From an uncultured Deinococcales bacterium (GTDB lineage Bacteria; Deinococcota; Deinococci; Deinococcales; JAAFIG01), in contig CAXTTL010000179.1 in the NCBI GenBank assembly GCA_964247135.1, forward strand, positions 1 to 10,135: a stretch of 10,135 nt of DNA. The letters are read 5' to 3'. Below are positions 1 through 10,135 of this stretch, one piece after another (position 1 is the first letter of the stretch; every line of letters begins with the position of its first letter). Below the pieces are notes generated by a model that was given only the letters and a program-made list of their open reading frames with translations, did not search any database and had not been told where the DNA came from. The position numbers and the translations under genes were made by a program.

Positions 1-1
1 T

Positions 2-640
2 AAAGAGAACGAAATTCAAACTGTGGCTTTGCGCGGCGCGAACCTCGAGGTGAAGCCAGGTGAGTTTGTGGCGGTGGTGGGGCGGTCTGGTTCTGGCAAA
101 AGCACCCTCTTTTCATTGCTGGCTGGTCTGGCTGAACCTACCGCTGGACATATCGAAATTGACGGGCGCGACATCACCAACCTGCCCGAATTCGAGCGCT
201 CAAGGTTGCGCCGTGACCGAATCGGTGTGACCTTTCAATCGGGCAACCTCCTGCCGTTCTTGAACGCACTCGAGAATGTCGAATTGCCGCTCGAGTTTGC
301 TGGAAATCAACAAGCCCGAAAACGGGCTAAAGACTTGCTCGAGGAAGTCGGTTTGGGAGCGCGTCAAACCTCGATGCCCGCGCAACTTTCTGGCGGCGAA
401 CAGGCTCGGGTCGCCCTGGCGATGGCGCTCGCCAACAATCCTGGTTTGTTGCTGGCAGACGAACCCACTGGCGAACTCGACACGCAAACTTCTGAGGAAA
501 TCATGCAAATGCTCGAGCGTCTCAACCTTGAACGCGGCGTGACCGTGTTGGTCGTGACCCACAACCCAGAATTGGCGACACGCGCAAGACGACGGGTGCG
601 AATCACCGATGGTGTGCTCGAGGAAGAGGTGAACGCATGA
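2..640 (+). CDS. ABC transporter ATP-binding protein, LolD/MacB (MJ0796) family; 5' end truncated by the window
   Basis: The frame is open from base 2 (KENEIQTVALRG...), so the true start lies upstream of the window and not at GTG 23. Motifs: Walker A GRSGSGKST, Q-loop TFQ, signature LSGGEQ, Walker B/D-loop LLLADEPTGELD, H-loop VVTHN. Confidence 0.95.
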   Translation, partial: KENEIQTVALRGANLEVKPGEFVAVVGRSGSGKSTLFSLLAGLAEPTAGHIEIDGRDITNLPEFERSRLRRDRIGVTFQSGNLLPFLNALENVELPLEFAGNQQARKRAKDLLEEVGLGARQTSMPAQLSGGEQARVALAMALANNPGLLLADEPTGELDTQTSEEIMQMLERLNLERGVTVLVVTHNPELATRARRRVRITDGVLEEEVNA

Positions 641-1371
641 ACCCGTTTCAAAGCAATCTCTCGAGTTTTTCAACGCCCCCAACTTCTGATATGAAGTACG
701 CTCTCGAGACGCACAATCTTTCACGGGTTTTCGATCTTGGCAAACATCAAGTCCACGCGCTCAAGAACGTCAATTTTCGCGTCCAGCCTGGTGAAAGTGT
801 CGCCATCGTTGGACCATCCGGTGGTGGCAAGTCCACGCTGTTGGCGTTGCTTGGTGGATTGGACACGCCCACCTCGGGTCAGGTGATGCTGGCGGGCAAA
901 GATTTGTACGCCATGACCGAACAGGAGCGCGTGCAACTCAGGCGCGGCTACCTCGGTTACATTTTTCAAGGCTACGACCTTCTGCCCGCCCTGAGTGTGC
1001 TCGAGAATGTTGCCTATCCGCTTCTTGTCGCTGGACTTGAACCTAAACAACGCACCGACCGCGCTCGAGCCATGCTGGTTGAGGTGGGACTCGAGGACAA
1101 AGAAGACTTTTTGCCCGACGAGCTTTCAGGTGGTCAGCAACAACGCGTCGGCATTGCGCGGTGTTTGGTCGCCGAACCGCACGTTGTTCTGGCGGACGAA
1201 CCCACAGGCAACCTCGACACCACCACCACGGGTGCGATCCTCGAGTTGTTGCGCGTTGCCACCCTCGAGCACGGCATGACCCTGGTGATGGTCACGCACG
1301 ACCCAGATGTTGCAAAAAGTGCCGACCGAACGGTAAGAATTCGTGATGGGATTTTGGAGGTGAACCCATGA
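637..1371 (+). CDS. Second ABC transporter ATP-binding protein, LolD/MacB family
   Basis: Motifs: Walker A GPSGGGKST, Q-loop IFQ, LSGGQQQRV, VVLADEPTGNLD, VTHD. ATGA overlap with the upstream stop and GAGGTG RBS at 626-631. Alternative start ATG 691 (MKYALE...). Confidence 0.95.
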   Translation: MNPFQSNLSSFSTPPTSDMKYALETHNLSRVFDLGKHQVHALKNVNFRVQPGESVAIVGPSGGGKSTLLALLGGLDTPTSGQVMLAGKDLYAMTEQERVQLRRGYLGYIFQGYDLLPALSVLENVAYPLLVAGLEPKQRTDRARAMLVEVGLEDKEDFLPDELSGGQQQRVGIARCLVAEPHVVLADEPTGNLDTTTTGAILELLRVATLEHGMTLVMVTHDPDVAKSADRTVRIRDGILEVNP

Positions 1372-4091
1372 GCAGTCTTTTCAATCACGCGGCGCGAAGT
1401 GTTTTTCGCAAGCCCGTCCAAACGCTGACCTACCTGCTGGGTCTGATGCTCGCCGTGGGCTTGTTCGTGGATACCCTATTTTTTGTAGACCTTTCCCAAC
1501 GCGACATGACCAAGAACGCGCTGGCACCCATTCAAGTGGACATGGTGGCTCGAGCCACGACGCCCGAACTTCCTGCTGGGGCGCTCGAGACAACCTTAAA
1601 AGGTCAAGCCATCGTCAAGTCTGGGGAATCGGTGGCAAATGCCGATTTCGCCTCACTCTCCAAGTTGGGCAGCACAAGCTCGAGTGCGGCGGGTAAAGTG
1701 TTTGCGCTGAACCAGTCTTATTACAAGACATTTGGCTTCTTGCCCATCGTTTCGGGGAAATATGATTCGACTGGCGCGATGGTCGGTGACGCCACCGCCA
1801 CGCAATTGGGGCTGAAGGTCGGTGATTCCATCAGCCTTAAATTTGCGGCAGGCATTAAAAGACCCTACACCGTAAAGATTTCTGGCATTGTCGGCATGGG
1901 GGTCAGCGAACCGCTGTTTTACAACCCAGACCCAGCCGGCGGCGAAGGTTACGGCGTTGTCGCCGATGTGGTTTTTATGCCACCGGTGATGTTTGAGCGT
2001 GACCTGTCCCCGACGCTCTCAAAACTTCCCATCACCACCTCGAGCGTCGGACAGACGGGTTCAAACGTGGTGCTGCTGCCCGTCGAACGGCAGGTGCATC
2101 TCAAGATTGACCAGAGCGGTCTGAATGCCGACCCAAGCAAAGCCTTGAAACAACTCGATGCTCTGCGCCGCAGCCTCGAGCGACCCTTTCCAGGGCAGGT
2201 GCGGGTGCAAAACAACCTCGCCAAAAAACTTGATAACGCTAAAAAGGATATTCTGGCAGCCAAAATGCTGTTCTTGTTCTTGGCGATTCCGGGCATCCTG
2301 CTGGCGGCGTACCTCTCCAAATACGCGGTTGAACTTTCAGCCGAACAGCGCCGACGCGAACTCAGCCTGCTGCGTGTTCGTGGTGCTGGAACTCGAGAGG
2401 TGCTGTTCATTACCGCCTTCACTGCCCTGATTCTGGCAGTCTTGGGCATCCTTTCGGGTTTGGTCTTTGGCACGTTAATGCTGGCGTTGACCCTTGGAAC
2501 GGGCGTGTTCACCGCCGCAAACCTCGAGCTTGTTGCGCCAAGTGTAGTCTGGGCGGCGCTGGGTGGTTTTGTCCTGACCGCACTTGCGTTCTTTCTGCCC
2601 GCTTGGGCGCAACTCCGTGGCGAGATTTCGGGCGCACGTCGCAGCGTGACTCGAGTGCAGGCAGCACCACTCTGGCGCCGCATGAACGCCGATTTTCTGA
2701 TGCTGATCGTGGCTGGAATCGTGTTGTACGTGACCGATGCCAATGGTGGTTTTAAACCGACTGGTACTGAAGGTACGGCGGTCACGCTCTCGTTTTACCT
2801 GTTCCTCGCGCCGTTTATGTTCTGGATTGGGGCGACCTTGCTTTTGATCCGACTGCTTGATTTGCTGCTGACTCGAGGTGCGCCTCTGGTCGCTCGGGTT
2901 TTGAAAGGCACGTTCGGAGAATTGGGTGTGGTGGCGGCTCGAGGCATGACCAGGCGCAGCAACGCGATGGGTTCTGCCGTGACCTTGACGGCACTTTCGC
3001 TTTCGTTCGGCGTGGCACTCTCGCTGTTTCTGGGGACGTACACCACGCAAAAGCAGGGCGATATTGCCTATGTGGTTGGCTCGGATGTGCGTGTTACCCC
3101 GCCTGCCAGCGCGAACCTGACACCCGAGTTTGCTAGCAAACTCGCGGCACTTCCCAATGTGACCAGTGCAACCGCCCTGGCTCGAGACCCCGTGGCGTTG
3201 ATCGGCAGCGAGAAAAAAAGTGTTTACGGCATTGACGTGACCAGCTTTGAACGAACCGCTTACCTGACAGGCGCCATGTTTGAAAACGGCAGCAGCCACG
3301 ACACGCTGCAAGCTTTGAAGAACACGCCAAATGGGGTGCTCTTGGCTCGAGATCAAGCCGATAAGTACGATATCAAGGTTGGTGATAAAGTCTTGATGCG
3401 CTTGTATAACCCGCGCACCGCACAATACGTGCCTCTCGAGGCGAAAGCGGTGGGGATTTACACCTACCTGCCCACCTCGAGCCAGGACGCGGATTTCGCC
3501 CTCAACCGAGACTTCATGACCAAGAGCGTTGGCACAGCCGGCGCAAATGTATTCTTGGTCAAAACTTCCAATCCAGTAGGTGTGACTTCGGGCATTCAGA
3601 GCACTTTTGGTTCGGGCTTGACCCTAAAGCTCGAGAATATCCTGACCGCCACCAAAATTGATTCGAGTTCGCTGACCAGCCTCAACCTGGCAGGACTGGG
3701 GAGCCTCGAGCGCTTGTACACGGCATTGATTGTCGCCGCAAGTTTGGGTGTGTTTTTAATCTCGATGTTGCAAGCCCGCCGCAAAGAGTTTGGCACGATG
3801 CGGGCGCTTGGCACGGACGAAACTCAACTCCGTACCTTGTTGGCGGCAGAAGCCCTGTCAATCTCGAGCATCAGCCTTGCCACTGGGGTTGGCATTGGTG
3901 CGGGCATTGCAGCCTTGTTTGTGATGCTCTTGCGGGTGATCTTCCTGATTCCACCAGTGGGTTTGACTTGGCAGGTTGGCGATTTGGGATTGCTGCTCGG
4001 ACTTTCGTTGTTGGGCATGATTCTTGGAGTGTTGTTGGCCAACCGCGCCCTCTCGAGATTGCGTGTCAGTGAGGTGTTGCGCGAGGTGTAA
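1368..4091 (+). CDS. Large FtsX-like/MacB-type ABC permease with two extracytoplasmic + FtsX-type membrane modules (907 aa)
   Basis: N-terminal TM, then a large soluble domain and the FtsX-type motif QRRRELSLLRVRGA with TMs. A second soluble domain follows, then the second motif ARRKEFGTMRALG and C-terminal ...VSEVLREV. ATGA overlap with the upstream gene, RBS GGAGGTG at 1356-1362. Confidence 0.9.
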   Translation: MSSLFNHAARSVFRKPVQTLTYLLGLMLAVGLFVDTLFFVDLSQRDMTKNALAPIQVDMVARATTPELPAGALETTLKGQAIVKSGESVANADFASLSKLGSTSSSAAGKVFALNQSYYKTFGFLPIVSGKYDSTGAMVGDATATQLGLKVGDSISLKFAAGIKRPYTVKISGIVGMGVSEPLFYNPDPAGGEGYGVVADVVFMPPVMFERDLSPTLSKLPITTSSVGQTGSNVVLLPVERQVHLKIDQSGLNADPSKALKQLDALRRSLERPFPGQVRVQNNLAKKLDNAKKDILAAKMLFLFLAIPGILLAAYLSKYAVELSAEQRRRELSLLRVRGAGTREVLFITAFTALILAVLGILSGLVFGTLMLALTLGTGVFTAANLELVAPSVVWAALGGFVLTALAFFLPAWAQLRGEISGARRSVTRVQAAPLWRRMNADFLMLIVAGIVLYVTDANGGFKPTGTEGTAVTLSFYLFLAPFMFWIGATLLLIRLLDLLLTRGAPLVARVLKGTFGELGVVAARGMTRRSNAMGSAVTLTALSLSFGVALSLFLGTYTTQKQGDIAYVVGSDVRVTPPASANLTPEFASKLAALPNVTSATALARDPVALIGSEKKSVYGIDVTSFERTAYLTGAMFENGSSHDTLQALKNTPNGVLLARDQADKYDIKVGDKVLMRLYNPRTAQYVPLEAKAVGIYTYLPTSSQDADFALNRDFMTKSVGTAGANVFLVKTSNPVGVTSGIQSTFGSGLTLKLENILTATKIDSSSLTSLNLAGLGSLERLYTALIVAASLGVFLISMLQARRKEFGTMRALGTDETQLRTLLAAEALSISSISLATGVGIGAGIAALFVMLLRVIFLIPPVGLTWQVGDLGLLLGLSLLGMILGVLLANRALSRLRVSEVLREV

Positions 4092-4322
4092 TGGCTTTCT
4101 TTTAATATCACGGTTTTACTCGTATTCCGATCAATTCCTAAACGTGCTTCAAAAACCAGGTGTGGTCGCCCGAGTCCCTTAACCTAGAACCTGTTTGGAA
4201 TTCAATGTCACGACAAATACCACCGACTGAACAAAGGCATGACTCTGCCAAGGTTTTGTCGGACATACGCAAGTTTACCTCTCGAGGTTTCCAACCACAG
4301 CCCGAGTTTTAAACTCAACTCC

Positions 4323-4340
4323 TGAACAAAATGAACTAAA
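4323..4340 (+). promoter_or_regulatory. Tandem direct repeat TGAACAAAA/TGAACTAAA, candidate response-regulator site
   Basis: A 9-bp period repeat ending 2 bp before the putative -35 box. A third TGAACAAA lies at 4228-4235. Confidence 0.45.
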
Positions 4341-4342
4341 GC

Positions 4343-4372
4343 TTGTCAGCCCATTGTCTGCTCACGTACACT
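4343..4372 (+). promoter_or_regulatory. Putative sigma70-type promoter of the importer operon
   Basis: TTGTCA (4343-4348), an 18-bp spacer and TACACT (4367-4372), upstream of ATG 4486. Confidence 0.55.
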
Positions 4373-4485
4373 CCCTTTCGACCACCAAATCAAAAAAACC
4401 GCTTTGCGAAGGCATTTATTGTCATTTCAATACGGACTGGTGTGTTGTTCACGGGTCGGTTGTGACTCGAGTGGAAAGGGATGCC

Positions 4486-5502
4486 ATGAAAAAGAGTACA
4501 CGTTTTTTGGTGATGGCTGGAGTGGCGCTGTTGCCGGTTGCTTTGATCGCGTTAAGCGGCGCGAGGGCGCAAAACTCGAAGGTGCGAATCATGGTTGGCG
4601 GCATGAACAAACAGATTTACTTGCCTGCCAAACTTGCGGAACAACTTGGGTATTTTAAAGCCCAAGGGATCGATGTCGAATTGCTCGACGAGCCGTCGGG
4701 CGTCAGCGCCGAGAACGAAATGCTGGCGGGGCAGGTGGATGGCGTGGTTGGTTTTTACGATCACAACGTTGACCTTCAGGCGCTGGGCAAAAACACCGAA
4801 TCGGTGGTGCAATTCAGCCGTGCGCCTGGCGAGGTCGAATTGGTCTCGAGCAAGATGGCTGGCACAATCAAATCGGCAAAAGATTTTAAGGGTCATACGC
4901 TGGGCGTGACAGGTTTGGGTTCTTCGACCAGCTTTTTAACCCAGTATTTGTCGGTCAAAAACGGCGTACCTGTTTCGGATATCACACTGCTGGCGGTTGG
5001 AGCGGGCAATACCTTTATTGCGGCAATGCAGCAGGGGCAGATTGATGCGGGCATGACCACCGAACCGACCATCTCGAGGATGCTGAAAACGGGTGATGCG
5101 AAGGTCTTGATTGACATGCGAACCCCAGAAAAAACCCAGCGTGCCTTGGGCGGGTTGTACCCTGCGGCGTGTTTGTACATGCCAACCGATTACGTCAATT
5201 CGCACAAGGTCGAAGTGCAAAAACTGGCGAACGCTTTTGTGAAGACCTTGGGTTACATTGCGCGACATACGGGCGCAGAGATTGCCGCCAAAATGCCGAA
5301 CGATTACTTGGTGGGCGACCCAGATTTGTACATCAAAGCGCTCGATGCGGGCAAGCGCATGTTCACCTTGGACGGTGTGATGCCCGACACGGGTCCTGAA
5401 ACAGTCTTGCGCGTGTTGGCAACTTTCAAAGCCTCTCTGAAGGGCAAGACCATTGATTTGTCTAAAACCTTCACCACCGAATTTGTCAAAAACGCAAAAT
5501 AA
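4486..5502 (+). CDS. ABC transporter substrate-binding protein, NitT/TauT (SsuA/NMT1-like) family
   Basis: Start reassigned from 4354 to ATG 4486, based on RBS GAAAGGGA at 4474-4481 and a Sec signal peptide MKKSTRFLVMAGVALLPVALIALSGARA-Q. Family-like segments: LGYFKAQGIDVEL, KDFKGHTLGVTGLGSST, GQIDAGMTTEP. Confidence 0.92.
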   Translation: MKKSTRFLVMAGVALLPVALIALSGARAQNSKVRIMVGGMNKQIYLPAKLAEQLGYFKAQGIDVELLDEPSGVSAENEMLAGQVDGVVGFYDHNVDLQALGKNTESVVQFSRAPGEVELVSSKMAGTIKSAKDFKGHTLGVTGLGSSTSFLTQYLSVKNGVPVSDITLLAVGAGNTFIAAMQQGQIDAGMTTEPTISRMLKTGDAKVLIDMRTPEKTQRALGGLYPAACLYMPTDYVNSHKVEVQKLANAFVKTLGYIARHTGAEIAAKMPNDYLVGDPDLYIKALDAGKRMFTLDGVMPDTGPETVLRVLATFKASLKGKTIDLSKTFTTEFVKNAK

Positions 5503-5519
5503 TTTTTAGACCATAAACA

Positions 5520-5550
5520 CGAGCCTCTCAAGTTTTTCTTGGGAGGCTCG
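5520..5550 (+). other. Intergenic 13-bp stem-loop between the binding-protein and ATPase genes
   Basis: CGAGCCTCTCAAG-TTTTT-CTTGGGAGGCTCG pairs fully with one G-U wobble. There is no 3' U tract, and it abuts the AGGAG RBS at 5551-5555. Confidence 0.8.
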
Positions 5551-5560
5551 AGGAGAGAAA

Positions 5561-6394
5561 ATGAAGACTGATTCTGGTGTGGCGATTGAGCTGAGTCATG
5601 TCAATCGCCGTTTTATTTCGCCTGACGGGACGTTGTTGACGGCGTTGCGAGATTTTTCGATGACGGTGAGGCGCGGCGAGTTTTGTGCGGTGGTCGGTCC
5701 GACGGGTTGCGGCAAATCGACCACGCTCGGTTTGATTACGGGCTTGGCGCGTCCGAACGATGGCGAGGTGCGGGTGATGGGCGTGCCAGTCTCCAAAATT
5801 GATCCGCGCATCGGTTTTGTCTTTCAACAAGACGCCGTTTTCCCCTGGAAGAGCGTGCTCGAGAATGTCGCCTCGGGTCCGTTGTTTCGTGGCACACTGC
5901 GCCCGCAGGCGCTCGAGAAGGCTCGGGATTGGGTGGCTCGGGTTGGCTTGGCGGGTTTTGAACAACACTATCCGCATCAGTTGTCGGGGGGAATGCGCAA
6001 GCGCGTGGCGTTGGCGCAGACGTTTATCAACGAGCCCGAAATTCTATTGATGGACGAGCCGTTCAGTGCGCTTGACGTGCAAACTCGAGTCTTGATGCAG
6101 GATGAACTCCTCAACCTTTGGGCGGCGAGCAAAGCCTCGGTGGTGTTTGTGACCCATGATCTCGAGGAGGCAATTGCGCTGTCCGACCGGGTGTTTGTGC
6201 TGACTTCGGGTCCTGCCACGGTCAAAGCGGTGTATGACATTGATCTGCCGCGCCCGAGGATTACCTCCGAGATTCGGTATGATCCCAAATTTATCGAGAT
6301 TTCCAAGGTGATTTGGAACGATTTGCGCGAGGAGGTGCTTGTGGCTTACGAACGTTCCATGAAAGTTGCTGGCGCGAGAAAGGCGGCGGCATGA
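5561..6394 (+). CDS. ABC transporter ATP-binding protein, NitT/TauT (TauB/SsuB-like) family
   Basis: Motifs: GPTGCGKST, VFQQDA, LSGGMRKRV, LLMDEPFSALD, VTHD and the family-typical C-terminal DLPRPR. RBS AGGAG. Confidence 0.95.
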   Translation: MKTDSGVAIELSHVNRRFISPDGTLLTALRDFSMTVRRGEFCAVVGPTGCGKSTTLGLITGLARPNDGEVRVMGVPVSKIDPRIGFVFQQDAVFPWKSVLENVASGPLFRGTLRPQALEKARDWVARVGLAGFEQHYPHQLSGGMRKRVALAQTFINEPEILLMDEPFSALDVQTRVLMQDELLNLWAASKASVVFVTHDLEEAIALSDRVFVLTSGPATVKAVYDIDLPRPRITSEIRYDPKFIEISKVIWNDLREEVLVAYERSMKVAGARKAAA

Positions 6395-7248
6395 GCGAAA
6401 TAACCACGCGTTCAGTGCCTGCAAGCACTTCACCGCTCGAGGTTGCGGCGGCGCTCGAGGTGCGCAGACGCAAAGTGTTGATCACTTTTTTAAGAATCAT
6501 GGTCAGTGTGGTGTTGTTTGGTGGCTGGGAATTGCTGGCACGACTGAAAATCATTGATACGTTTTTTTACTCGATGCCCTCCAAGATTCTCGAGCAAATC
6601 TGGACGTGGATCACGCTAGGCACAGCCCAAGGTCCGTTGTATCAGCAAATTCTGGTGACGCTCGAGGAAACCGTGCTGGGTTTTCTGATTGGCGCGGTGC
6701 TGGGAATTATTGCGGGCATTGGTCTGGGCAGGAACAAATTGTTGGCGGATGTTTTTAGTGTTTACATCCGAATTGCCAACTCGATTCCTCGGGTCGTGCT
6801 GGGTTCAATTTTTGTGATTACGTTGGGGCTTGGAATGCAGTCCAAGGTCGCGCTGGCGGTGGTGATGGTGTTCTTTGTGGTCTTCGGCAATGCCTTCCAG
6901 GGTGTGCGCGAGGCAGATCGCAATTTGATTGCCAACGCCAGAATACTGGGCGCATCGCCGCATCAGGTCACGATGAACGTGATCATTCCGTCCGCCATGA
7001 GTTGGATTCTGGCAAGCTTGCACATCAGCTTTAGTTTTGCGCTGGTGGGCGCGGTGGTCGGCGAATTCCTCGGCTCGAGACAGGGCATCGGTCTGATGAT
7101 TTCAACGGCGCAGGGCAGCTTCAACGCGGCTGGCGTATTTGCCTCAATGGTGATCCTCGCCGTGGTCGCGCTGAGCGCCGAGTATTTAATCACCGCACTC
7201 GAGAACAAACTCATCAAATGGCGACCCGCAAACCTGGTCGAAAATTAA
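6391..7248 (+). CDS. ABC transporter permease, NitT/TauT (TauC/SsuC-like) family
   Basis: Start reassigned from 6313 to ATG 6391 (ATGA overlap with the ATPase stop). Multiple TM helices, an EAA-loop-like segment GVREADRNLIANARILGAS, and VVGEFLGSRQGIG. Confidence 0.93.
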   Translation: MSEITTRSVPASTSPLEVAAALEVRRRKVLITFLRIMVSVVLFGGWELLARLKIIDTFFYSMPSKILEQIWTWITLGTAQGPLYQQILVTLEETVLGFLIGAVLGIIAGIGLGRNKLLADVFSVYIRIANSIPRVVLGSIFVITLGLGMQSKVALAVVMVFFVVFGNAFQGVREADRNLIANARILGASPHQVTMNVIIPSAMSWILASLHISFSFALVGAVVGEFLGSRQGIGLMISTAQGSFNAAGVFASMVILAVVALSAEYLITALENKLIKWRPANLVEN

Positions 7249-7258
7249 GTTTGAGCGG

Positions 7259-7264
7259 TAGACT
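7259..7264 (+). promoter_or_regulatory. Candidate internal -10 box (TAGACT) for the two-component genes
   Basis: A TAnnnT hexamer in the 34-bp gap between the permease stop and the first possible kinase start. No convincing -35 box was seen. Confidence 0.3.
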
Positions 7265-7282
7265 GCCTAAAACATCGCGAAA

Positions 7283-8980
7283 GTGACCAAAGCCATGAGA
7301 CTCGAGGTTTCCACAACCCGTCCAAACCCAGCAACTCGAGCTTCAAAAGGTTCGGTGCTCGAGGTTGTATCAAAACGGCTTGGACGCGGCAAATTGGGCA
7401 TTCAGGTGCGTTTGTTTTTGTTGCAGGCGGTGGTCGTCTTGGTGCTGACTTTGGCGCTGGCAATCGTGCAGGGCGTGGTGCTCGAGCGTTCGATTCAGCG
7501 CGATTATGGCGAACGGGCGCTGGGCATCTCGAGGTTGGTCGCCACCATGCCGGATTTGGTGGACGCCATCGAGCATTCAAACCATCCGAGCGCGAGCATA
7601 AATCCACTCGCCAATCGAATTCGTGGTTTGGTGGGAGCAGATTTTATTGTGGTCGGCGATGTTCACGGGATTCGTTTGTCGCACCCGAATCCCGCCAAAC
7701 TTGGGCATTCGATGTACGACAGCGCCGAACCTCGAGCCGACACCGATCAACCCCTGGCGGGCGTTGAGATCATCAGCATCGCCAAGGGCGGTCTAGGCGT
7801 TTCGATTCGCGGTAAAGTTCCGATTTTCAACGCTCAAAAACACGTGATTGGTCTGGTCTCGACGGGTTATTTGTTGCCAGGAATCCAACAAATTGCAGCT
7901 CGGGTCAGCAGTTCGATCTATCCGTGGTTCGGTTTGGCGCTCGGACTCGCGTTGCTCTCGAGCATCATCATTGCACGGCGTTTCAAACTTGAAATGCTCA
8001 ACCTCGAGCCTGAACAGATTTCGGCGTTGGTGCTCGAGCACCGTGCGGTACTCAGCGCACTTCAAGAGGGCGTTTTGGTGCTTGACGCCGCTGGAAAGGT
8101 TTTGCTCGCCAACCCTCGAGCCGCACAAATGCTTGATTTGCAAGAATCAGAACACGTTTCAATCTCGAGCCTCTGGGCAGAGCTGTTCGAGTCGGGTTTG
8201 CTTGCCAACTCGAGTCAGGCGCAAAATCAAGCGCTGCGCTTAAACGGGCTCCCCGTCTTGGTCAACGTCCTAGAGGCGGCAGACGGGCGGCGCGTGGTGA
8301 CGTTTAGGGACCGCGCAGAGATCACGCAGATTGCTGAGGAACTCACCCAAACGCGCCAGTATTCCGATCTCTTGCGGGCGCAAACCCACGAGTTCATGAA
8401 TCGTCTGCACACCATCTCGGGTTTGATTCAACTCGAACGTAAAGATGATGCCCTCAATTTGATTCACCTCGAGTCCGAACGCGCCCGCGTGATGAGAGAT
8501 TTGATCTCCGAGATTCAAGTGCCGCACCTCGCAGCCTTGATTATTGGCAAGGTCGAACGCGCCCGAGAGTTGGGCGTACATTTTGGACTCGAGCCTGGAG
8601 CGAACCTTGGCAGCGAATGGACGGCGTTGGCGGCAGATGTGCTCGTGCCTGTGATTGGCAACCTTATCGAAAATGCGTTTGAATCGGTGCTCGAGACTTC
8701 CAAAAATCCCAGCGTCACCCTTGCCATCGGCACTGACCCTGAAGGCTTGCAACTCGAGGTGATCGACAACGGCGCTGGTGTTCCAGAATCCTCAAGGCAA
8801 CACATATTCGAGCCTGGATTCTCGAGCCACGGCGCAACTCGAGGCTTAGGATTGGCTATGGTAAAACAGCACGTCAACGCCCTTGGCGGAAGTGTTACCT
8901 GCTTTGAACGCGCCAGCAAAACCGTGTTTCAAGTCAGTTTGCCACACTCGAGCCTTGCTCCTTTGAGAGCCGCCTCATGA
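7283..8980 (+). CDS. CitA/DcuS-family sensor histidine kinase, probably citrate/tricarboxylate sensing
   Basis: TM1, then a single Cache sensor domain (RLSHPNP...GLGVSIRGKVP), TM2 and a PAS-like region (LQEGVLVLDAAGKVLLAN). H-box LRAQTHEFMNRLHTISGL, N-box GNLIENAFE, G1 DNGAG, F-box IFEPGFS, G2 GLGL. Start uncertain: GTG 7283, ATG 7295 or GTG 7355. Confidence 0.93.
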   Translation: MTKAMRLEVSTTRPNPATRASKGSVLEVVSKRLGRGKLGIQVRLFLLQAVVVLVLTLALAIVQGVVLERSIQRDYGERALGISRLVATMPDLVDAIEHSNHPSASINPLANRIRGLVGADFIVVGDVHGIRLSHPNPAKLGHSMYDSAEPRADTDQPLAGVEIISIAKGGLGVSIRGKVPIFNAQKHVIGLVSTGYLLPGIQQIAARVSSSIYPWFGLALGLALLSSIIIARRFKLEMLNLEPEQISALVLEHRAVLSALQEGVLVLDAAGKVLLANPRAAQMLDLQESEHVSISSLWAELFESGLLANSSQAQNQALRLNGLPVLVNVLEAADGRRVVTFRDRAEITQIAEELTQTRQYSDLLRAQTHEFMNRLHTISGLIQLERKDDALNLIHLESERARVMRDLISEIQVPHLAALIIGKVERARELGVHFGLEPGANLGSEWTALAADVLVPVIGNLIENAFESVLETSKNPSVTLAIGTDPEGLQLEVIDNGAGVPESSRQHIFEPGFSSHGATRGLGLAMVKQHVNALGGSVTCFERASKTVFQVSLPHSSLAPLRAAS

Positions 8981-9669
8981 GCCTCGAGCCTTCCAAACCA
9001 ACCCGCGTTATCCTGATCGAAGATGACCCTTGGGTGATGCTGCTCAACCGCCAAATGCTCGAGTCAGAAACCGATTTTTGTGTGGTTGGCGAAGCCGAAA
9101 CCGTGAAACGTGGCTTGGCAATTGCCAAAACGCTCGAGCCAGATTTGCTGCTGGTGGATGTCTTCCTTCCCGATGGCAGCGGTCTGGAATTGGTGCATCA
9201 ACTGCGCAGCGAAAACCTGCCGTTTGAAGCGATCATGATTACCGCCGCCAACGACCTTGAAAGTGTACAACGCGCCCTGCGTGATGGAGCGCTCGATTAC
9301 TTGATCAAACCGTTTCAGCAAAGTCGCCTTCGCCTGGCGCTCGAGCGATTCCGAACGCGTGAATCCATGACCCAAAAGGACAAGCAATTCACGCAATTCA
9401 AACTGGATCGCCTGCTCGGTCAAACCAGCGAACGACTGCCCAAAGGTGTGGATGCCACCACCCTTGAGCAAGTCCAGAATTCGCTGTTAACCGCCACTGA
9501 GCCTTTAAGCGCCGAAGAACTCGGCGTTCAGGTGGGTTTGAGCCGTGTCACCGCCTGGCGCTATCTCGAGCATTTAAGAACCACTGGCGTTGTGACGCTT
9601 GAGGTGGCGCATGGGACGGTCGGCAGACCTTCAAAACGATATGGTTTGGTGAAACGGATTAAGAATTAA
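8977..9669 (+). CDS. CitB/DcuR-family response regulator
   Basis: Receiver domain (LIEDD, LLLVDVFLPDGSG, ITAA, DYLIKPF), LPKGVDATTL linker and C-terminal HTH LSAEELGVQVGLSRVTAWRYLEHL...VGRPSKRY. ATGA overlap with the kinase stop. Confidence 0.95.
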   Translation: MSLEPSKPTRVILIEDDPWVMLLNRQMLESETDFCVVGEAETVKRGLAIAKTLEPDLLLVDVFLPDGSGLELVHQLRSENLPFEAIMITAANDLESVQRALRDGALDYLIKPFQQSRLRLALERFRTRESMTQKDKQFTQFKLDRLLGQTSERLPKGVDATTLEQVQNSLLTATEPLSAEELGVQVGLSRVTAWRYLEHLRTTGVVTLEVAHGTVGRPSKRYGLVKRIKN

Positions 9670-9735
9670 ACCATTTACCAGTAAGTCGTCTATTTGATCG
9701 GGATACTTTCAAGATTTTTGAGGAATTAATAGAAT

Positions 9736-9891
9736 TACAGTGATTTTGGCATTGGTTGAGAATCATACGATATACCCACAACCCGCGAACCAAGAACACG
9801 CCAGCACTTCACCAATCAACCTTTTACCACGACCAATCGCATCCACCAACGCCCGCCGAGAACGCACTCCAACACCAGGGAAGACAACGAT
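9736..9891 (-). mobile_element. Probable IS630-family remnant: transposase C-terminus plus right terminal repeat
   Basis: Minus-strand frame 9891-9763 reads IVVFPGVGVRSRRALVDAIGRGKRLIGEVLACSWFAGCGYIV*, resembling the IS630 transposase C-terminal pattern (R..L..AI..........WF..CGY*). It is followed by ...AAAATCACTG-TA, i.e. a terminal repeat next to a TA target. No start codon or DDE core is present. Confidence 0.6.
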
Positions 9892-10115
9892 TCATGACAA
9901 ATGACTCTTCCGCAAGTTGTGTGAGTGATTTCAGCCGTTCCCCAAAGTTGAGATGCAACCTGAAACAAGTGGTCAGCAGGGCTACAGCGTAAAAGACGGC
10001 TTGTCGAGCAGGCTTCGGGGAACACACACTGGTGGAGGGCGTTCTCTGGGAAACTACTTAAAACTAGATTAAATCGGATGTACTGACTCCTGCAATTTTA
10101 GCTTAATATAAGACC

Positions 10116-10135
10116 ATGCCTTGGACACCATCAAA
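10116..10135 (+). CDS. Possible start of a leaderless gene running off the window (MPWTPS...)
   Basis: TAATAT (10104-10109) lies 6 nt before ATG 10116 with no Shine-Dalgarno. Only 6 codons are visible. Confidence 0.3.

Follow-up and report, generated by a model that had tools for sequence, protein, structure and literature searches.

Throughout an uncultured family of the Deinococcales, the hexamer CTCGAG behaves at the DNA level as an iterated palindrome like HIP1. The first-pass annotation of the window (the whole 10,135-nucleotide stretch of DNA that was analyzed) had proposed a HIP1-like, frame-independent, genome-wide word maintained by a process encoded outside the window, and this proposal was supported on every test run.

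Abundance in the window, the genome and the family

The window contains exactly 70 copies of CTCGAG (Table 1), each where the first-pass annotation had placed it. Among 200 dinucleotide-preserving shuffles of the window, the mean was 2.23 copies (standard deviation, 1.54; maximum, 8) and none of the 200 reached 70. Within open reading frames (ORFs), 39 sites read CTC-GAG, 14 read xCT-CGA-Gxx and 15 read xxC-TCG-AGx, and the examples previously assigned to each phase were right (44, 269 and 703; 1064, 2392, 2650 and 3181; and 660, 1679, 2039 and 4052, respectively). The two remaining sites, at 4281 and 5547, lie outside ORFs, as had been stated, but a third supposedly noncoding site, at 4466, falls inside the longest ORF at its locus. 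The 68 sites in the eight ORFs of the window compare with 9.5 ± 2.6 (maximum, 18) in 500 synonymous-codon shuffles and with 4.5 ± 2.0 (maximum, 11) in 500 codon-order shuffles. The window ends in a site-free tail; G+C content is 0.46 at positions 9670 to 10135, and the last 55 bases are found again at the ends of other contigs.

The abundance of CTCGAG extends to the entire genome, where it is the commonest hexamer. The 5.09-Mb source assembly, which is 84% complete, contains 33,925 copies (6.7/kb), approximately 25-fold more than the 1,371 expected from a zero-order model. All 19 of the 19 genomes of the family carry the word at 4.3 to 6.8/kb, or about one per 150 to 230 bp. The excess is weaker and graded in sister families, and in genus g9, CTCGAG is no commoner than the control hexamer GAGCTC.

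Table 1. Positions of CTCGAG in the window, with codon phase and location; the last two rows give the span of the sites and the site-free tail.
Position	Codon phase	Location or remark
44..49	CTC-GAG (Leu-Glu)	ABC ATPase 1; retained in 5/5 aligned relatives
269..274	CTC-GAG	ABC ATPase 1
290..295	CTC-GAG	ABC ATPase 1
338..343	CTC-GAG	ABC ATPase 1
512..517	CTC-GAG	ABC ATPase 1
617..622	CTC-GAG	ABC ATPase 1
660..665	xxC-TCG-AGx	ABC ATPase 2
703..708	CTC-GAG	ABC ATPase 2
1000..1005	CTC-GAG	ABC ATPase 2
1064..1069	xCT-CGA-Gxx	ABC ATPase 2
1090..1095	CTC-GAG	ABC ATPase 2
1240..1245	CTC-GAG	ABC ATPase 2
1264..1269	CTC-GAG	ABC ATPase 2
1549..1554	xCT-CGA-Gxx	FtsX permease
1584..1589	CTC-GAG	FtsX permease
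1679..1684	xxC-TCG-AGx	FtsX permease
2039..2044	xxC-TCG-AGx	FtsX permease
2175..2180	CTC-GAG	FtsX permease
2392..2397	xCT-CGA-Gxx	FtsX permease
2523..2528	CTC-GAG	FtsX permease
2650..2655	xCT-CGA-Gxx	FtsX permease
2872..2877	xCT-CGA-Gxx	FtsX permease
2938..2943	xCT-CGA-Gxx	FtsX permease
3181..3186	xCT-CGA-Gxx	FtsX permease
3346..3351	xCT-CGA-Gxx	FtsX permease
3435..3440	CTC-GAG	FtsX permease
3476..3481	xxC-TCG-AGx	FtsX permease
3630..3635	CTC-GAG	FtsX permease
3705..3710	CTC-GAG	FtsX permease; TTGGAG/TTAGAA in relatives
3863..3868	xxC-TCG-AGx	FtsX permease
4052..4057	xxC-TCG-AGx	FtsX permease
4281..4286		gap 4092-4353, without ORF of at least 100 aa
4466..4471	xCT-CGA-Gxx	longest ORF 4354-5502; noncoding only if true start downstream
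4845..4850	xxC-TCG-AGx	NMT1-like binding protein
5073..5078	xxC-TCG-AGx	NMT1-like binding protein
5547..5552		gap 5503-5560, outside ORFs
5858..5863	CTC-GAG	ABC ATPase 3
5912..5917	CTC-GAG	ABC ATPase 3
6084..6089	xCT-CGA-Gxx	ABC ATPase 3
6161..6166	CTC-GAG	ABC ATPase 3
6436..6441	CTC-GAG	BPD permease
6454..6459	CTC-GAG	BPD permease
6589..6594	CTC-GAG	BPD permease
6661..6666	CTC-GAG	BPD permease
7074..7079	xxC-TCG-AGx	BPD permease
7198..7203	CTC-GAG	BPD permease
7301..7306	CTC-GAG	sensor kinase
7335..7340	xCT-CGA-Gxx	sensor kinase
7358..7363	CTC-GAG	sensor kinase
7481..7486	CTC-GAG	sensor kinase
7528..7533	xxC-TCG-AGx	sensor kinase
7731..7736	xCT-CGA-Gxx	sensor kinase
7957..7962	xxC-TCG-AGx	sensor kinase
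8003..8008	CTC-GAG	sensor kinase
8033..8038	CTC-GAG	sensor kinase
8115..8120	xCT-CGA-Gxx	sensor kinase
8164..8169	xxC-TCG-AGx	sensor kinase
8209..8214	xxC-TCG-AGx	sensor kinase
8468..8473	CTC-GAG	sensor kinase
8588..8593	CTC-GAG	sensor kinase
8690..8695	CTC-GAG	sensor kinase
8753..8758	CTC-GAG	sensor kinase
8821..8826	xxC-TCG-AGx	sensor kinase
8838..8843	xCT-CGA-Gxx	sensor kinase
8947..8952	xxC-TCG-AGx	sensor kinase
8983..8988	CTC-GAG	response regulator
9058..9063	CTC-GAG	response regulator
9133..9138	CTC-GAG	response regulator
9340..9345	CTC-GAG	response regulator
9565..9570	CTC-GAG	response regulator; last copy
44..9570		all 70 copies, mean spacing ~138 bp
9571..10135		site-free tail, 565 bp

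Coding constraint and the extent of the unit

The excess of CTCGAG does not have a coding origin. The 27,959 copies in the ORFs of the genome exceed the 3,939 expected under synonymous shuffling by 7-fold, and shuffling of codon order yields an expectation of only 1,607. Rather than being confined to Leu-Glu, the word is raised 5.6- to 13.8-fold across all three codon phases. An excess of about 1.8-fold persists over a codon-pair Markov model, with 4,419 and 6,468 copies observed in the two phases that span three codons versus 2,416 and 3,456 expected. Intergenic gaps contain 7.5 to 9.5 copies/kb, with observed/expected (O/E) ratios of 36 to 43, and the word also occurs in tRNA genes of the family. 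Codon or dipeptide preference is thus insufficient, as had been argued from the window, given that every codon phase and the intergenic DNA are enriched.

The stretch under protection is exactly 6 bp. Sequence identity between relatives is 0.91 to 0.96 on the six bases of CTCGAG versus 0.77 to 0.92 at adjacent positions, the flanking bases are near random, and a search for a palindromic extension beyond the hexamer found none, all of which bear out the earlier view that the unit is the 6-mer. TCGA in general is likewise unenriched: outside CTCGAG, it occurs at about its expected frequency (O/E, 1.12), and the other NTCGAN contexts in the window total 43, close to the 40 or so first reported.

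Conservation and turnover of sites

Selective retention of CTCGAG acts on the DNA itself, beyond protein constraint. An alignment of 60 kb with five genomes of the same genus (~85% identity) shows 74 to 80% of the sites of genome G000 to be retained, compared to 41 to 45% for all hexamers. The third base of in-frame CTC codons differs in 83 of 878 cases inside CTCGAG versus 270 of 635 outside, and that of in-frame GAG codons in 87 of 903 versus 373 of 835, such that synonymous third-base differences from relatives amount to 9.5% inside the word and 43 to 45% outside. The fixation of changes that destroy a site is several times rarer than that of comparable changes at other positions.

There is also turnover of sites, and some have been gained in single lineages. 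The copy at 3705 is one such lineage-specific gain through a synonymous change of a leucine codon, since relatives carry TTGGAG or TTAGAA at this position. Density is steady, as four genomes compared over one set of 39,004 alignment columns have 307, 290, 281 and 273 sites, and parsimony assigns 115 losses and 58 gains to single lineages, which is not a clean balance.

Methylases and the maintenance of the word

Methylases specific for CTCGAG are active in cultured relatives. The supplement of Blow et al. (2016) lists N6-adenine methylases for this site in three of them, M.Mru1279II (99.5%), M.Mch9957IV (94.1%) and M.Mhy14884I (94.6%), each with the motif m6A cTcgAg and without a listed restriction enzyme, and SMRT sequencing found 94 to 99.5% of sites to be methylated. 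The supplementary table has no row for a CTCGAG methylase in Meiothermus silvanus. Over 97% of its length, the Meiothermus ruber protein shares 64% identity with plasmid genes that carry the annotation paeR7IM. The relationship between at least two of the CTCGAG methylases is distant (30% identity in the catalytic part), and their best solved relatives are M.TaqI and M.BseCI, respectively, indicating the recruitment of unrelated enzymes to a single word.

The link to methyltransferases suggested by the first-pass annotation is supported by these published enzymes of cultured relatives, but a search for a CTCGAG-type methylase in the 84%-complete source assembly found none. PF07669 matched only three large type IIG/helicase-fused proteins in this genome, TaqI_C had no match, and neither did tblastn searches in which the PaeR7I-type proteins of M. 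ruber, G019 and the plasmid served as queries. Each methylase lineage whose distribution was traced is absent from part of the family: of 18 family genomes, 9 have the C207 type, 6 the C4b type (two of these with stop codons within the match) and 6 the D12 type; TaqI_C is found in 6 of 19, the HsdM-like type of G011 is patchy, and the TaqI_C search of G011, a single-contig family genome, gave no match. In genus g12, a PaeR7I-type gene is seen in 3 of 13 genomes and does not track CTCGAG density, which is 2.2 to 2.4/kb with the gene and 1.4 to 3.1/kb without it. In genus g9, all 23 of 23 genomes have an M.TaqI-family gene and the word is no more frequent than its control GAGCTC, implying that methylation, if the gene is active, is insufficient.

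The best overall explanation, to which we assign somewhat less than even odds (roughly 0.45), is a fixation-biased word of the HIP kind that is probably read by a methylation-centered system. A weak and uniform fixation bias, with a scaled strength (S) of about 3 to 4 per site, would act on whatever DNA stays in the lineage; this value is suggested because the 25- to 43-fold equilibrium excess and the ~6-fold lower rate of loss both fit a single bias. The reader would most likely be a type-II-like, 6-bp-specific enzyme system centered on N6-adenine methylation, making CTCGAG a potential epigenetic "self" mark as dense as a 4-bp Dam-type site is by chance. Sites would then be favored through a DNA transaction that reads this mark. 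Our best current guess, by analogy, is that this transaction may be the uptake or recombination of transforming DNA with a bias toward kin, a methylation-dependent gain in transformation having been reported for HIP1 (PMC13756078); repair and nucleoid handling are alternative candidates. Of the biased repair offered earlier, the Dcm/Vsr-style version is disfavored, in that a search for Vsr found none and identity is raised on exactly six bases. A search for MutH returned 0 of 5.

Like cyanobacterial HIP1, CTCGAG of the Deinococcales is a frame-independent, genome-wide iterated palindrome. Because cultured relatives mark it with adenine methylases that lack a listed restriction partner, it provides a second counterpart of the HIP1 puzzle, and one that is reachable by experiment.

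Abundance of CTCGAG in the window, the genome and the phylum

The window contains exactly 70 copies of CTCGAG, each where the first-pass annotation had placed it, compared with 2.23 ± 1.54 in dinucleotide-preserving shuffles (maximum, 8; n = 200). The codon phases given in that annotation for 11 coding examples are correct in every case, and the full set divides into 39 sites read as CTC-GAG (Leu-Glu), 14 as xCT-CGA-Gxx, 15 as xxC-TCG-AGx, and 2 outside open reading frames (ORFs). Three sites had been described as non-coding, which holds for the two outside ORFs but not for the one at 4466, which would be non-coding only if the ORF that spans it truly starts downstream. The other NTCGAN contexts, previously put at about 40, number 43. 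Eight ORFs, encoding three ABC ATPases, an FtsX-type permease, an NMT1-like binding protein, a BPD permease, an sCache/PAS histidine kinase and a DpiA-like regulator, hold 68 of the sites; 500 synonymous shuffles give 9.5 ± 2.6, and 500 shuffles of codon order give 4.5 ± 2.0. None of their products bears on the word, in agreement with the earlier view that no gene in the window explains it.

Locations of features in the window, in other contigs of the source assembly and in other genomes
Feature	Location	Observation
First alignment set	Window 1-4100	Aligned to six relatives
Lineage-specific site	Window 3705	Relatives read TTGGAG or TTAGAA
Sites outside ORFs	Window 4281, 5547	
Site within an ORF	Window 4466	
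Longest ORF spanning the site at 4466	Window 4354-5502	
Third ABC ATPase, longest ORF	Window 5561-6394	
BPD permease, longest ORF	Window 6313-7248	True start probably further downstream than 6313
Overlap of the ATPase and permease ORFs	Window 6313-6394	82 bases
Window tail	565 bp after 9570	No CTCGAG
Dispersed repeat that breaks assemblies	Window 10081-10135	These last 55 bases are repeated at other contig ends, with 100% identity in C102, C96 and C127 and with ~90% identity in many contigs of genome G004
Second alignment set	Contig C2, 1-60000	Projected onto five same-genus genomes
Parts of a beta-class N4/N6 methylase	C207:3-827; C4:2-253	Contig ends; overlapping parts 89% identical over 47 residues; probably a single gene cut where the assembly broke, or else a pair of close paralogues
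PaeR7I-type nuclease of genome G098	Locus L079, ~3156-3832	Two overlapping pieces, seemingly in different frames
Methylase of Thermus jumbo phage phiLo	MH673673.1, 42266-43438	51% identical to the 447-residue methylase of G019

The source assembly (5.09 Mb in 386 contigs, the largest of 115.6 kb and the window being C179; 84% complete; 52.7% G+C) contains 33,925 copies (6.66/kb), a 24.7-fold excess over the 1,371 expected from a zero-order model, and CTCGAG is its commonest hexamer by more than 2-fold. The original description of a HIP1-like, frame-independent, genome-wide word is thus confirmed as an observation, and its interpretation is supported. A maximal-order Markov test did not flag CTCGAG in this genome because the 5-mers of the word itself carry the signal, and lower-order and codon-based models were used in its place.

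All 19 genomes of the family to which the source genome belongs (f1; five genera) are similarly rich, with 12,028 to 35,442 copies, or 4.3 to 6.8/kb on rounded genome sizes. The 120 further genomes sampled across the phylum span a wide range. Counts are 3,336 to 12,522 (1.4 to 3.4/kb) in 18 genomes of three Meiothermus-like genera (g12, g13 and g14), in which the control word GAGCTC occurs 278 to 2,187 times; 3,870 to 6,708 in family f4; and 2,224 to 6,990 in family f2. The 23 genomes of genus g9 (1.9 to 2.5 Mb) have 1,455 to 2,537 copies, not above the 1,113 to 2,680 of GAGCTC, and CTCGAG is depleted, at 26 to 1,010 copies, in the 63 genomes (1.9 to 6.1 Mb) of genus g7, which we infer to be Deinococcus-like. 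These counts therefore establish the excess as an order-level, graded trait that peaks in f1, yet extends to cultured genera; across Deinococcota, densities run from below 0.3 to 6.8/kb.

The excess far surpasses what codon usage and protein sequence predict. In 4,233 crudely called ORF-genes totaling 4.30 Mb of the source genome, there are 27,959 sites, compared with 3,939 when codons are shuffled synonymously, keeping the protein, and 1,607 when codon order is shuffled (five shuffles each). Each phase contributes: 17,072 sites were observed against 3,047 from synonymous shuffles for CTC-GAG, 4,419 against 321 for xCT-CGA-Gxx, and 6,468 against 571 for xxC-TCG-AGx. For the latter two phases, which span three codons, even a codon-pair Markov model that retains all neighboring-codon frequencies predicts only 2,416 and 3,456 sites, respectively. 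Leu-Glu is the most overrepresented dipeptide of the genome (22,198 versus 9,298 expected; O/E, 2.39), and 77% of its occurrences (17,072) are spelled CTCGAG, compared with an O/E of 1.02 for Glu-Leu, of which none of the 9,454 occurrences is spelled GAGCTC. CTCGAG has altered protein sequences.

Non-coding DNA is denser in sites than coding DNA. Gaps of 30 to 400 bp between ORFs contain 7.5 to 9.5 sites/kb, an O/E of 36 to 43 by their own composition, and the 100-bp flanks of predicted tRNA genes contain 10.9 sites/kb. The predicted tRNA genes themselves contain 10 sites in 5,129 bases, where 34 would be expected at genome density and, by our calculation, ~1.4 from composition. An artificial origin of the excess, whether through codon usage, dipeptide preference, a dispersed repeat or assembly, can be regarded as refuted: in-frame Leu-Glu does make up 61% of ORF sites, but the count is 7-fold above the synonymous shuffle, both out-of-frame phases exceed the codon-pair model, the intergenic excess is accompanied by random flanks, and the same word is enriched in all 19 independently assembled genomes of the family.

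Enrichment is confined to the hexamer itself. At no flanking position does a single base rise above 39% (the most frequent are G at -1, C at +1 and A at -3), and flank complementarity is at the chance level of 0.21 to 0.27; these figures rule out a dispersed repeat of the REP/MITE type. TCGA outside CTCGAG is near expectation (O/E, 1.12). Words one substitution away have O/E values of 0.5 to 1.7 genome-wide, and none is depleted except CTAGAG (0.08), whose rarity is part of a general avoidance of CTAG. The ten rarest non-palindromic tetramers of the genome all contain TAG or CTA (O/E, 0.07 to 0.20), and runs of A or T are about 3-fold overrepresented (AAAA/TTTT, 3.0; CAAA/TTTG, 2.9).

Sites are spaced nearly geometrically (mean, 148 bp; coefficient of variation, 0.96). 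The only periodicity is 3 nt, the densest cluster comprises 9 sites in 300 bp, and there are no origin-like clusters. Fano factors are 0.81 to 0.91 at 250 to 500 bp. A spacing of 6 was never seen, as two such sites would generate a GAGCTC. A spacing of 8 (CTCGAGNNCTCGAG) occurs in 11 cases, compared with 87 at a spacing of 7, 115 at a spacing of 9 and ~216 under the geometric model; GAGNNCTC is itself scarce, with 383 copies versus 1,723 for N1 and 1,444 for N3.

This even, genome-wide spread and the exact 6-bp palindromic constraint, which suits a dimeric reader, would be expected of a binding site for an abundant nucleoid-associated or chromosome-organizing protein, a function proposed for HIP1 in a passage of Xu et al. 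(2018, PMC5861425). Such a role is nevertheless very unlikely here: there is no helical phasing at 10 to 11 bp, the Fano factors are about what we estimate short-range exclusion alone to yield, and no candidate protein was found.

Turnover of sites and strength of the bias

In the first alignment set, in which the relatives are 63 to 86% identical to the window, 62 columns have a site in at least one genome, with 21 to 31 sites per genome. Among the 31 sites of the source genome, 27 are kept in G005 (86% identity) and 15 in G011 (72% identity), both members of the same family; about 4 would be expected in G011 from identity alone, by our calculation. Several sites are lineage-specific.

The second set, 60 kb projected onto five same-genus genomes, is star-like, with all pairs 84 to 86% identical. 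Sites of the source genome are kept in 321 of 400, 288 of 360, 268 of 357, 165 of 213 and 186 of 251 cases, amounting to a retention of 74 to 80%, as opposed to 41 to 45% for all hexamers. In-frame CTC codons have a different third base in 83 of 878 codon-genome pairs when they lie inside the word, compared with 270 of 635 when they lie outside it; for GAG, the corresponding figures are 87 of 903 and 373 of 835. Overall, synonymous third-base differences fall from 43 to 45% outside CTCGAG to 9.5% inside. The block of high identity is exactly six bases wide, with equal protection at each position. In ancestral sites, C is replaced by T at 0.010 to 0.012 per base-lineage against a background of 0.026, and T is replaced by C at 0.0036 against 0.021; transversions account for 7 of 85 single-step losses.

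Site density is steady: over one set of 39,004 columns, four genomes have 307, 290, 281 and 273 sites. By parsimony, there were 115 single-lineage losses and 58 single-lineage gains. Among these gains, the ancestor is ambiguous for 30, the majority state is two to four changes away for 23, and 5 arose in a single step. Hexamers beside indels and in poorly aligned stretches were left out, which should lead to undercounting of gains, and the imbalance may reflect either gains hidden in poorly aligned DNA or a genus that is slowly losing sites. Gains from conserved one-off neighbors number 2 in 184 lineage-opportunities, compared with 2.3 expected at background rates, a comparison that is underpowered by the few events.

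After Jukes-Cantor correction of the 9.5% and ~43.5% differences, sites are lost at ~0.16 of the synonymous background rate, which would be the relative fixation probability of a change with a scaled disadvantage, S, of ~3. Taken as an equilibrium, an excess that is 25-fold genome-wide and 43-fold in intergenic DNA corresponds to ln(O/E) values of 3.2 to 3.8. The value from losses agrees with that from the excess, which therefore suggests one weak, uniform bias. The surplus of losses over gains by parsimony fits such a bias less well. The existence of a fixation bias on CTCGAG that acts at the DNA level, is exact to the hexamer and is lineage-wide is solidly supported, as are its age and its graded spread through the order.

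A weak and equal bias (S of ~3 to 4 by our estimate) at each of tens of thousands of sites is also the pattern of biased conversion, and a non-adaptive drive, in which biased repair or gene conversion resolves mismatches at near-sites toward CTCGAG, would produce it. The word would then have no function, and the methylases of relatives would be incidental or protective. The displacement of protein sequence (Leu-Glu) and the entry of sites into tRNA genes look like a cost rather than a benefit, as a drive predicts, and a passage of Elhai (2015, PMC4390886) offers such a model for HIP1. We nevertheless consider a drive unlikely. No class of neighbors has been drained: transition neighbors have O/E values of 1.2 to 1.7 genome-wide and 2.1 to 2.8 in intergenic DNA, and transversion neighbors 0.5 to 1.1 genome-wide and, except for CTAGAG (0.21), 0.6 to 1.1 in intergenic DNA. 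The intergenic surplus of transition neighbors looks as though sites from a large pool had decayed into them. Furthermore, patch repair specific to T:G mismatches would not protect all six positions equally, no homologue of Vsr or MutH was found, and similar conservation of HIP1 was taken as evidence of selection rather than biased repair in part of the analysis of Xu et al. (2018, PMC5861425). Substitution data alone cannot separate selection from drive.

Two specific repair routes are disfavored. Very-short-patch repair of the Dcm/Vsr type is at odds with the lack of any match to Vsr and with the frequencies of TTCGAG (O/E, 1.74) and CTTGAG (1.17; 2.1 in intergenic DNA), which are not depleted. 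Methyl-directed mismatch repair of the Dam/MutH type is at odds with the lack of MutH in all five genomes searched, where the control matched in E. coli, and with the lack of a family-wide lineage among the methylases traced.

Methylases in the family and its relatives

The source genome has a rich restriction-modification repertoire, and five predicted nucleases fit five avoided words, which we take to be their specificities: an NgoPII-type nuclease with an m5C methylase (GGCC; 380 copies; O/E, 0.016), a PvuII-type nuclease with an N4/N6 methylase (CAGCTG; 15 copies), an Eco29kI-type nuclease with an m5C methylase (CCGCGG; 11 copies), a SacI-like nuclease with a D12 methylase (GAGCTC; 0 copies), and an MvaI/BcnI-family nuclease with an N4/N6 methylase (CCSGG; O/E, 0.066, compared with 1.15 for CCWGG). 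Most other 6-bp palindromes are also extremely avoided in the 5.09 Mb (GGGCCC, 1 copy; CGGCCG, 3; AGGCCT, 4; CGTACG, 5; GGATCC, 7). GAGCTC, the half-swapped partner of CTCGAG, is present in 0 to 25 copies in 16 of the 19 genomes of f1 and in 114, 161 and 568 copies in the other three, and the D12 methylase that partners the SacI-like nuclease is present in 7 of the 19. This avoidance reflects either further GAGCTC systems or a tie to the excess of CTCGAG.

The remaining methylases comprise type I and MmeI-like type IIG enzymes, a 1,499-residue methylase-helicase and two beta-class genes with uncharacterized neighbors. No CTCGAG-specific methylase was recognized in the 84%-complete assembly: nothing similar to TaqI_C-type or PaeR7I-type proteins was found, and neither the nuclease nor the methylase encoded by plasmid pRSB105 had a tblastn match. 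The Pfam XhoI profile, whose control was silent in every genome, is uninformative. None of the methylase lineages whose distribution was traced is family-wide in f1. The beta-class methylase on contigs C207 and C4 has ~80%-identical copies in four other genomes of the family but in none of the five same-genus genomes, and matches in 9 of 18 when weaker ones are included. The 279-residue product of the gene downstream of it matches no Pfam or NCBIfam model and could be an unrecognized nuclease. A second methylase on C4, of 466 residues, is found in 6 of 18 genomes, in two of which (G005 and G012) stop codons interrupt the match. The methylase-helicase, on contig C112, has matches only to large proteins of f3, a family poor in CTCGAG. 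An HsdM-like gene of G011 is patchy in distribution and adjoins STAND NTPase and toxin-antitoxin genes, and TaqI_C-type methylases, present in 6 of the 19 genomes, are absent from the source genome, G005 and G011. Each was therefore rejected as a family-wide orphan or, for the methylase-helicase, as a CTCGAG orphan.

Among cultured relatives, the methylome tables of Blow et al. (2016, PMC4752239) list CTCGAG for Meiothermus ruber DSM 1279, a species with ~2.4 sites/kb (M.Mru1279II, Mrub_2385; type II, m6A, cTcgAg; 99.5% of sites), Meiothermus chliarophilus DSM 9957 (M.Mch9957IV; 94.1%) and Marinithermus hydrothermalis DSM 14884 (M.Mhy14884I, annotated as an Eco57I restriction endonuclease; 94.6%). 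The partner column of the supplement gives no restriction enzyme for any of the three, and the same tables have no CTCGAG row for Meiothermus silvanus DSM 9946. In the portions of the main text available to us, CTCGAG comes up solely in connection with an orphan from Nocardia that shows origin clusters, and no remark on its abundance was found there. A preprint on hot-spring epigenomes (10.64898/2026.06.24.734251) describes, in the portions available, CTCGAG and TCGA as methylated motifs common to one host-phage group and conserved motif sets in Deinococcota.

Two types of gene were followed through the sample. The first is a 553-residue methylase of G030, a member of the Meiothermus-like genus g12, with Eco57I and TaqI_C domains; it is identical in sequence to a protein named Eco57I restriction-modification methylase domain-containing protein from Meiothermus ruber and may correspond to Mrub_2385. 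Over 97% of its length it is 64% identical to the products of plasmid genes, one of which is annotated paeR7IM and lies beside paeR7IR. PaeR7I cuts CTCGAG. Of the 121 genomes sampled, 6 have a homologue that is at least 50% identical: three of the 13 in g12, both of those in g14 (one copy carrying stop codons) and one in f2. Only the f2 copy, in G098, has a PaeR7I-type nuclease beside it; those of G030, G048 and G024 have none. This nuclease, in a genome with 6,713 copies of CTCGAG, may be a decaying restriction gene that will leave the methylase as an orphan. Within g12, site density does not follow the gene (2.2 to 2.4/kb with it, and 1.4 to 3.1/kb without it).

The second type is a 447-residue methylase of G019 (family f4), a possible counterpart of M.Mhy14884I, whose gene is flanked by those for an aminotransferase and a LiaF-like protein. 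Its alignment with M.TaqI is full-length (E = 1e-126), and it shares 30% identity with the G030 enzyme, in the catalytic part only. Full-length orthologues (51 to 58% identity) are present in all 23 genomes of g9 (e.g., loci L351 to L355), unusually universal for a gene of the restriction-modification type, and in one genome of genus g17, and nowhere else in the sample; a Thermus phage carries a related copy. M.TaqI methylates TCGA, which sits inside CTCGAG. Judging from gene content, CTCGAG would be methylated across g9 without enrichment if these M.TaqI-family genes are active.

It is well established, then, that in cultured members CTCGAG is a preferred target of m6A methylases without restriction partners, from at least two unrelated lineages. 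The gene data suggest that methylation is neither sufficient (g9) nor demonstrably necessary (f1 and M. silvanus) for enrichment.

Known iterated words and the meaning of CTCGAG

HIP1 (GCGATCGC) and alternate HIPs are described from cyanobacteria in the passages cited here (Elhai 2015, PMC4390886; Xu, Lawrence and Durand 2018, PMC5861425; Rodriguez-Cruz et al. 2026, PMC13756078). CTCGAG shares with them the features of a short GC-rich palindrome, more than 15-fold overrepresented, that occurs in every frame and in intergenic DNA, is conserved at orthologous positions beyond background, and is targeted, as a word or through its core, by methylases without restriction partners, in the case of CTCGAG in cultured relatives only. 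It is not HIP1 proper, whose core, CGATCG, has only 47 copies in the source genome. It differs in host phylum (Deinococcales), in length (6 rather than 8 bp) and in density, which is ~5 to 7 times the ~1/kb quoted for HIPs in Elhai (2015, PMC4390886). Its methylation is m6A by gamma-class enzymes of the TaqI/PaeR7I type, again in cultured relatives, and no conserved methylase was found in f1. Periodic spacing at 10 to 90 kb is claimed for HIP1 in part of Xu et al. (2018, PMC5861425); on the contigs here, of 115.6 kb at most, CTCGAG shows a 3-nt periodicity at short range. CTCGAG is a HIP-type palindrome in a second phylum.

Other systems are more distant. PaeR7I/XhoI-type systems recognize the same word, and the M. 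ruber methylase resembles the paeR7IM product, but restriction targets are normally avoided by their hosts, whereas CTCGAG is 25-fold enriched, and neither gene has a homologue that was found in the source genome. The GATC sites of Dam in Gammaproteobacteria are likewise evenly spread palindromic m6A sites, with one per 150 to 250 bp in E. coli. As a 4-mer, GATC attains this density by chance, whereas CTCGAG needs its 25-fold enrichment; moreover, CTCGAG has no origin-type clusters, no MutH and no universal methylase that was found.

The DNA uptake sequences of Neisseria (DUS) and Pasteurellaceae (USS) are also single words in genome-wide excess, within and between genes, that alter peptides. 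These are longer, non-palindromic words at ~1/kb, with known or inferred uptake bias. CTCGAG might be a 6-bp palindromic counterpart, spread by biased uptake of kin DNA independently of methylation. Deinococcota include naturally transformable genera, and the family-wide distribution graded through the order, the even, Poisson-like density without clusters, and the occurrence in coding and non-coding DNA with changed proteins would all suit such a signal. There are also 18 site-free stretches of at least 1.5 kb in the source genome, compared with ~1.4 that we calculate from mean spacing, and 12 of the 18 have a G+C content of 0.43 or lower. The notion that foreign DNA is free of CTCGAG is only partly borne out, however: the O/E stays at 23 to 27 in all G+C classes between 32% and 64%, and the word is thus already present in most AT-rich DNA. 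As known uptake sequences are oriented motifs of 9 to 12 bp and no receptor is known, we hold this reading to be somewhat less likely than a drive, though ahead of a nucleoid site. A scan of viral contigs for three sites within ~80 bp returned at least 126 stretches; none of the 80 examined is related to the source genome, and the densest of these (64 to 72% G+C) are rich in GAGCTC as well and have no bearing on phages of f1.

An epigenetic "self" mark, in which CTCGAG carries N6-adenine methylation, ranks first among the readings, with a probability of about 0.45, because the density of CTCGAG equals that of a 4-bp Dam-type site and because HIP1, the closest analogue, reportedly increases transformation in a manner that depends on methylation (Rodriguez-Cruz et al. 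2026, PMC13756078). Below it rank, in order, a repair drive without function, a methylation-independent uptake signal and a nucleoid site. The fuller version of the self-mark reading, an independently evolved HIP-like genomic watermark in Deinococcales whose methylated form is read as a sign of kin DNA, is less likely than not. Its reader would be the machinery of DNA transactions, acting in uptake or recombination of transforming DNA or in methyl-directed repair without MutH. The resulting fixation bias would have rewritten ~0.7% of all positions, protein sequences included, and repeated recruitment of unrelated methylases (PaeR7I, TaqI and HsdM types) to CTCGAG would represent selection to keep the mark. 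Causality may also run in reverse, with a genome packed with CTCGAG retaining any methylase of that word as protection against incoming XhoI/PaeR7I-type systems.

A full-text literature search, with subscription journals and REBASE largely outside its coverage, found no report of CTCGAG overrepresentation in Deinococcota. HIP1 has been without an explanation for three decades and, in the cited parts of its literature, is known from cyanobacteria only; with a second, independent and denser case, features common to both systems are likely to be causal. The gradient from f1 (4.3 to 6.8/kb) through the Meiothermus-like genera (1.4 to 3.4/kb) to g9, with no specific excess, and the depleted Deinococcus-like genomes includes cultured strains with published methylomes, and methylase knockouts, transformation assays and pulldowns are therefore feasible. 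For cloning, XhoI is either useless or highly informative in these genomes. For annotation, the word biases codon choice, spelling 77% of Leu-Glu, and inflates that dipeptide 2.4-fold in proteins. Within the lineage, the density of CTCGAG could mark how long a stretch of DNA has been resident.
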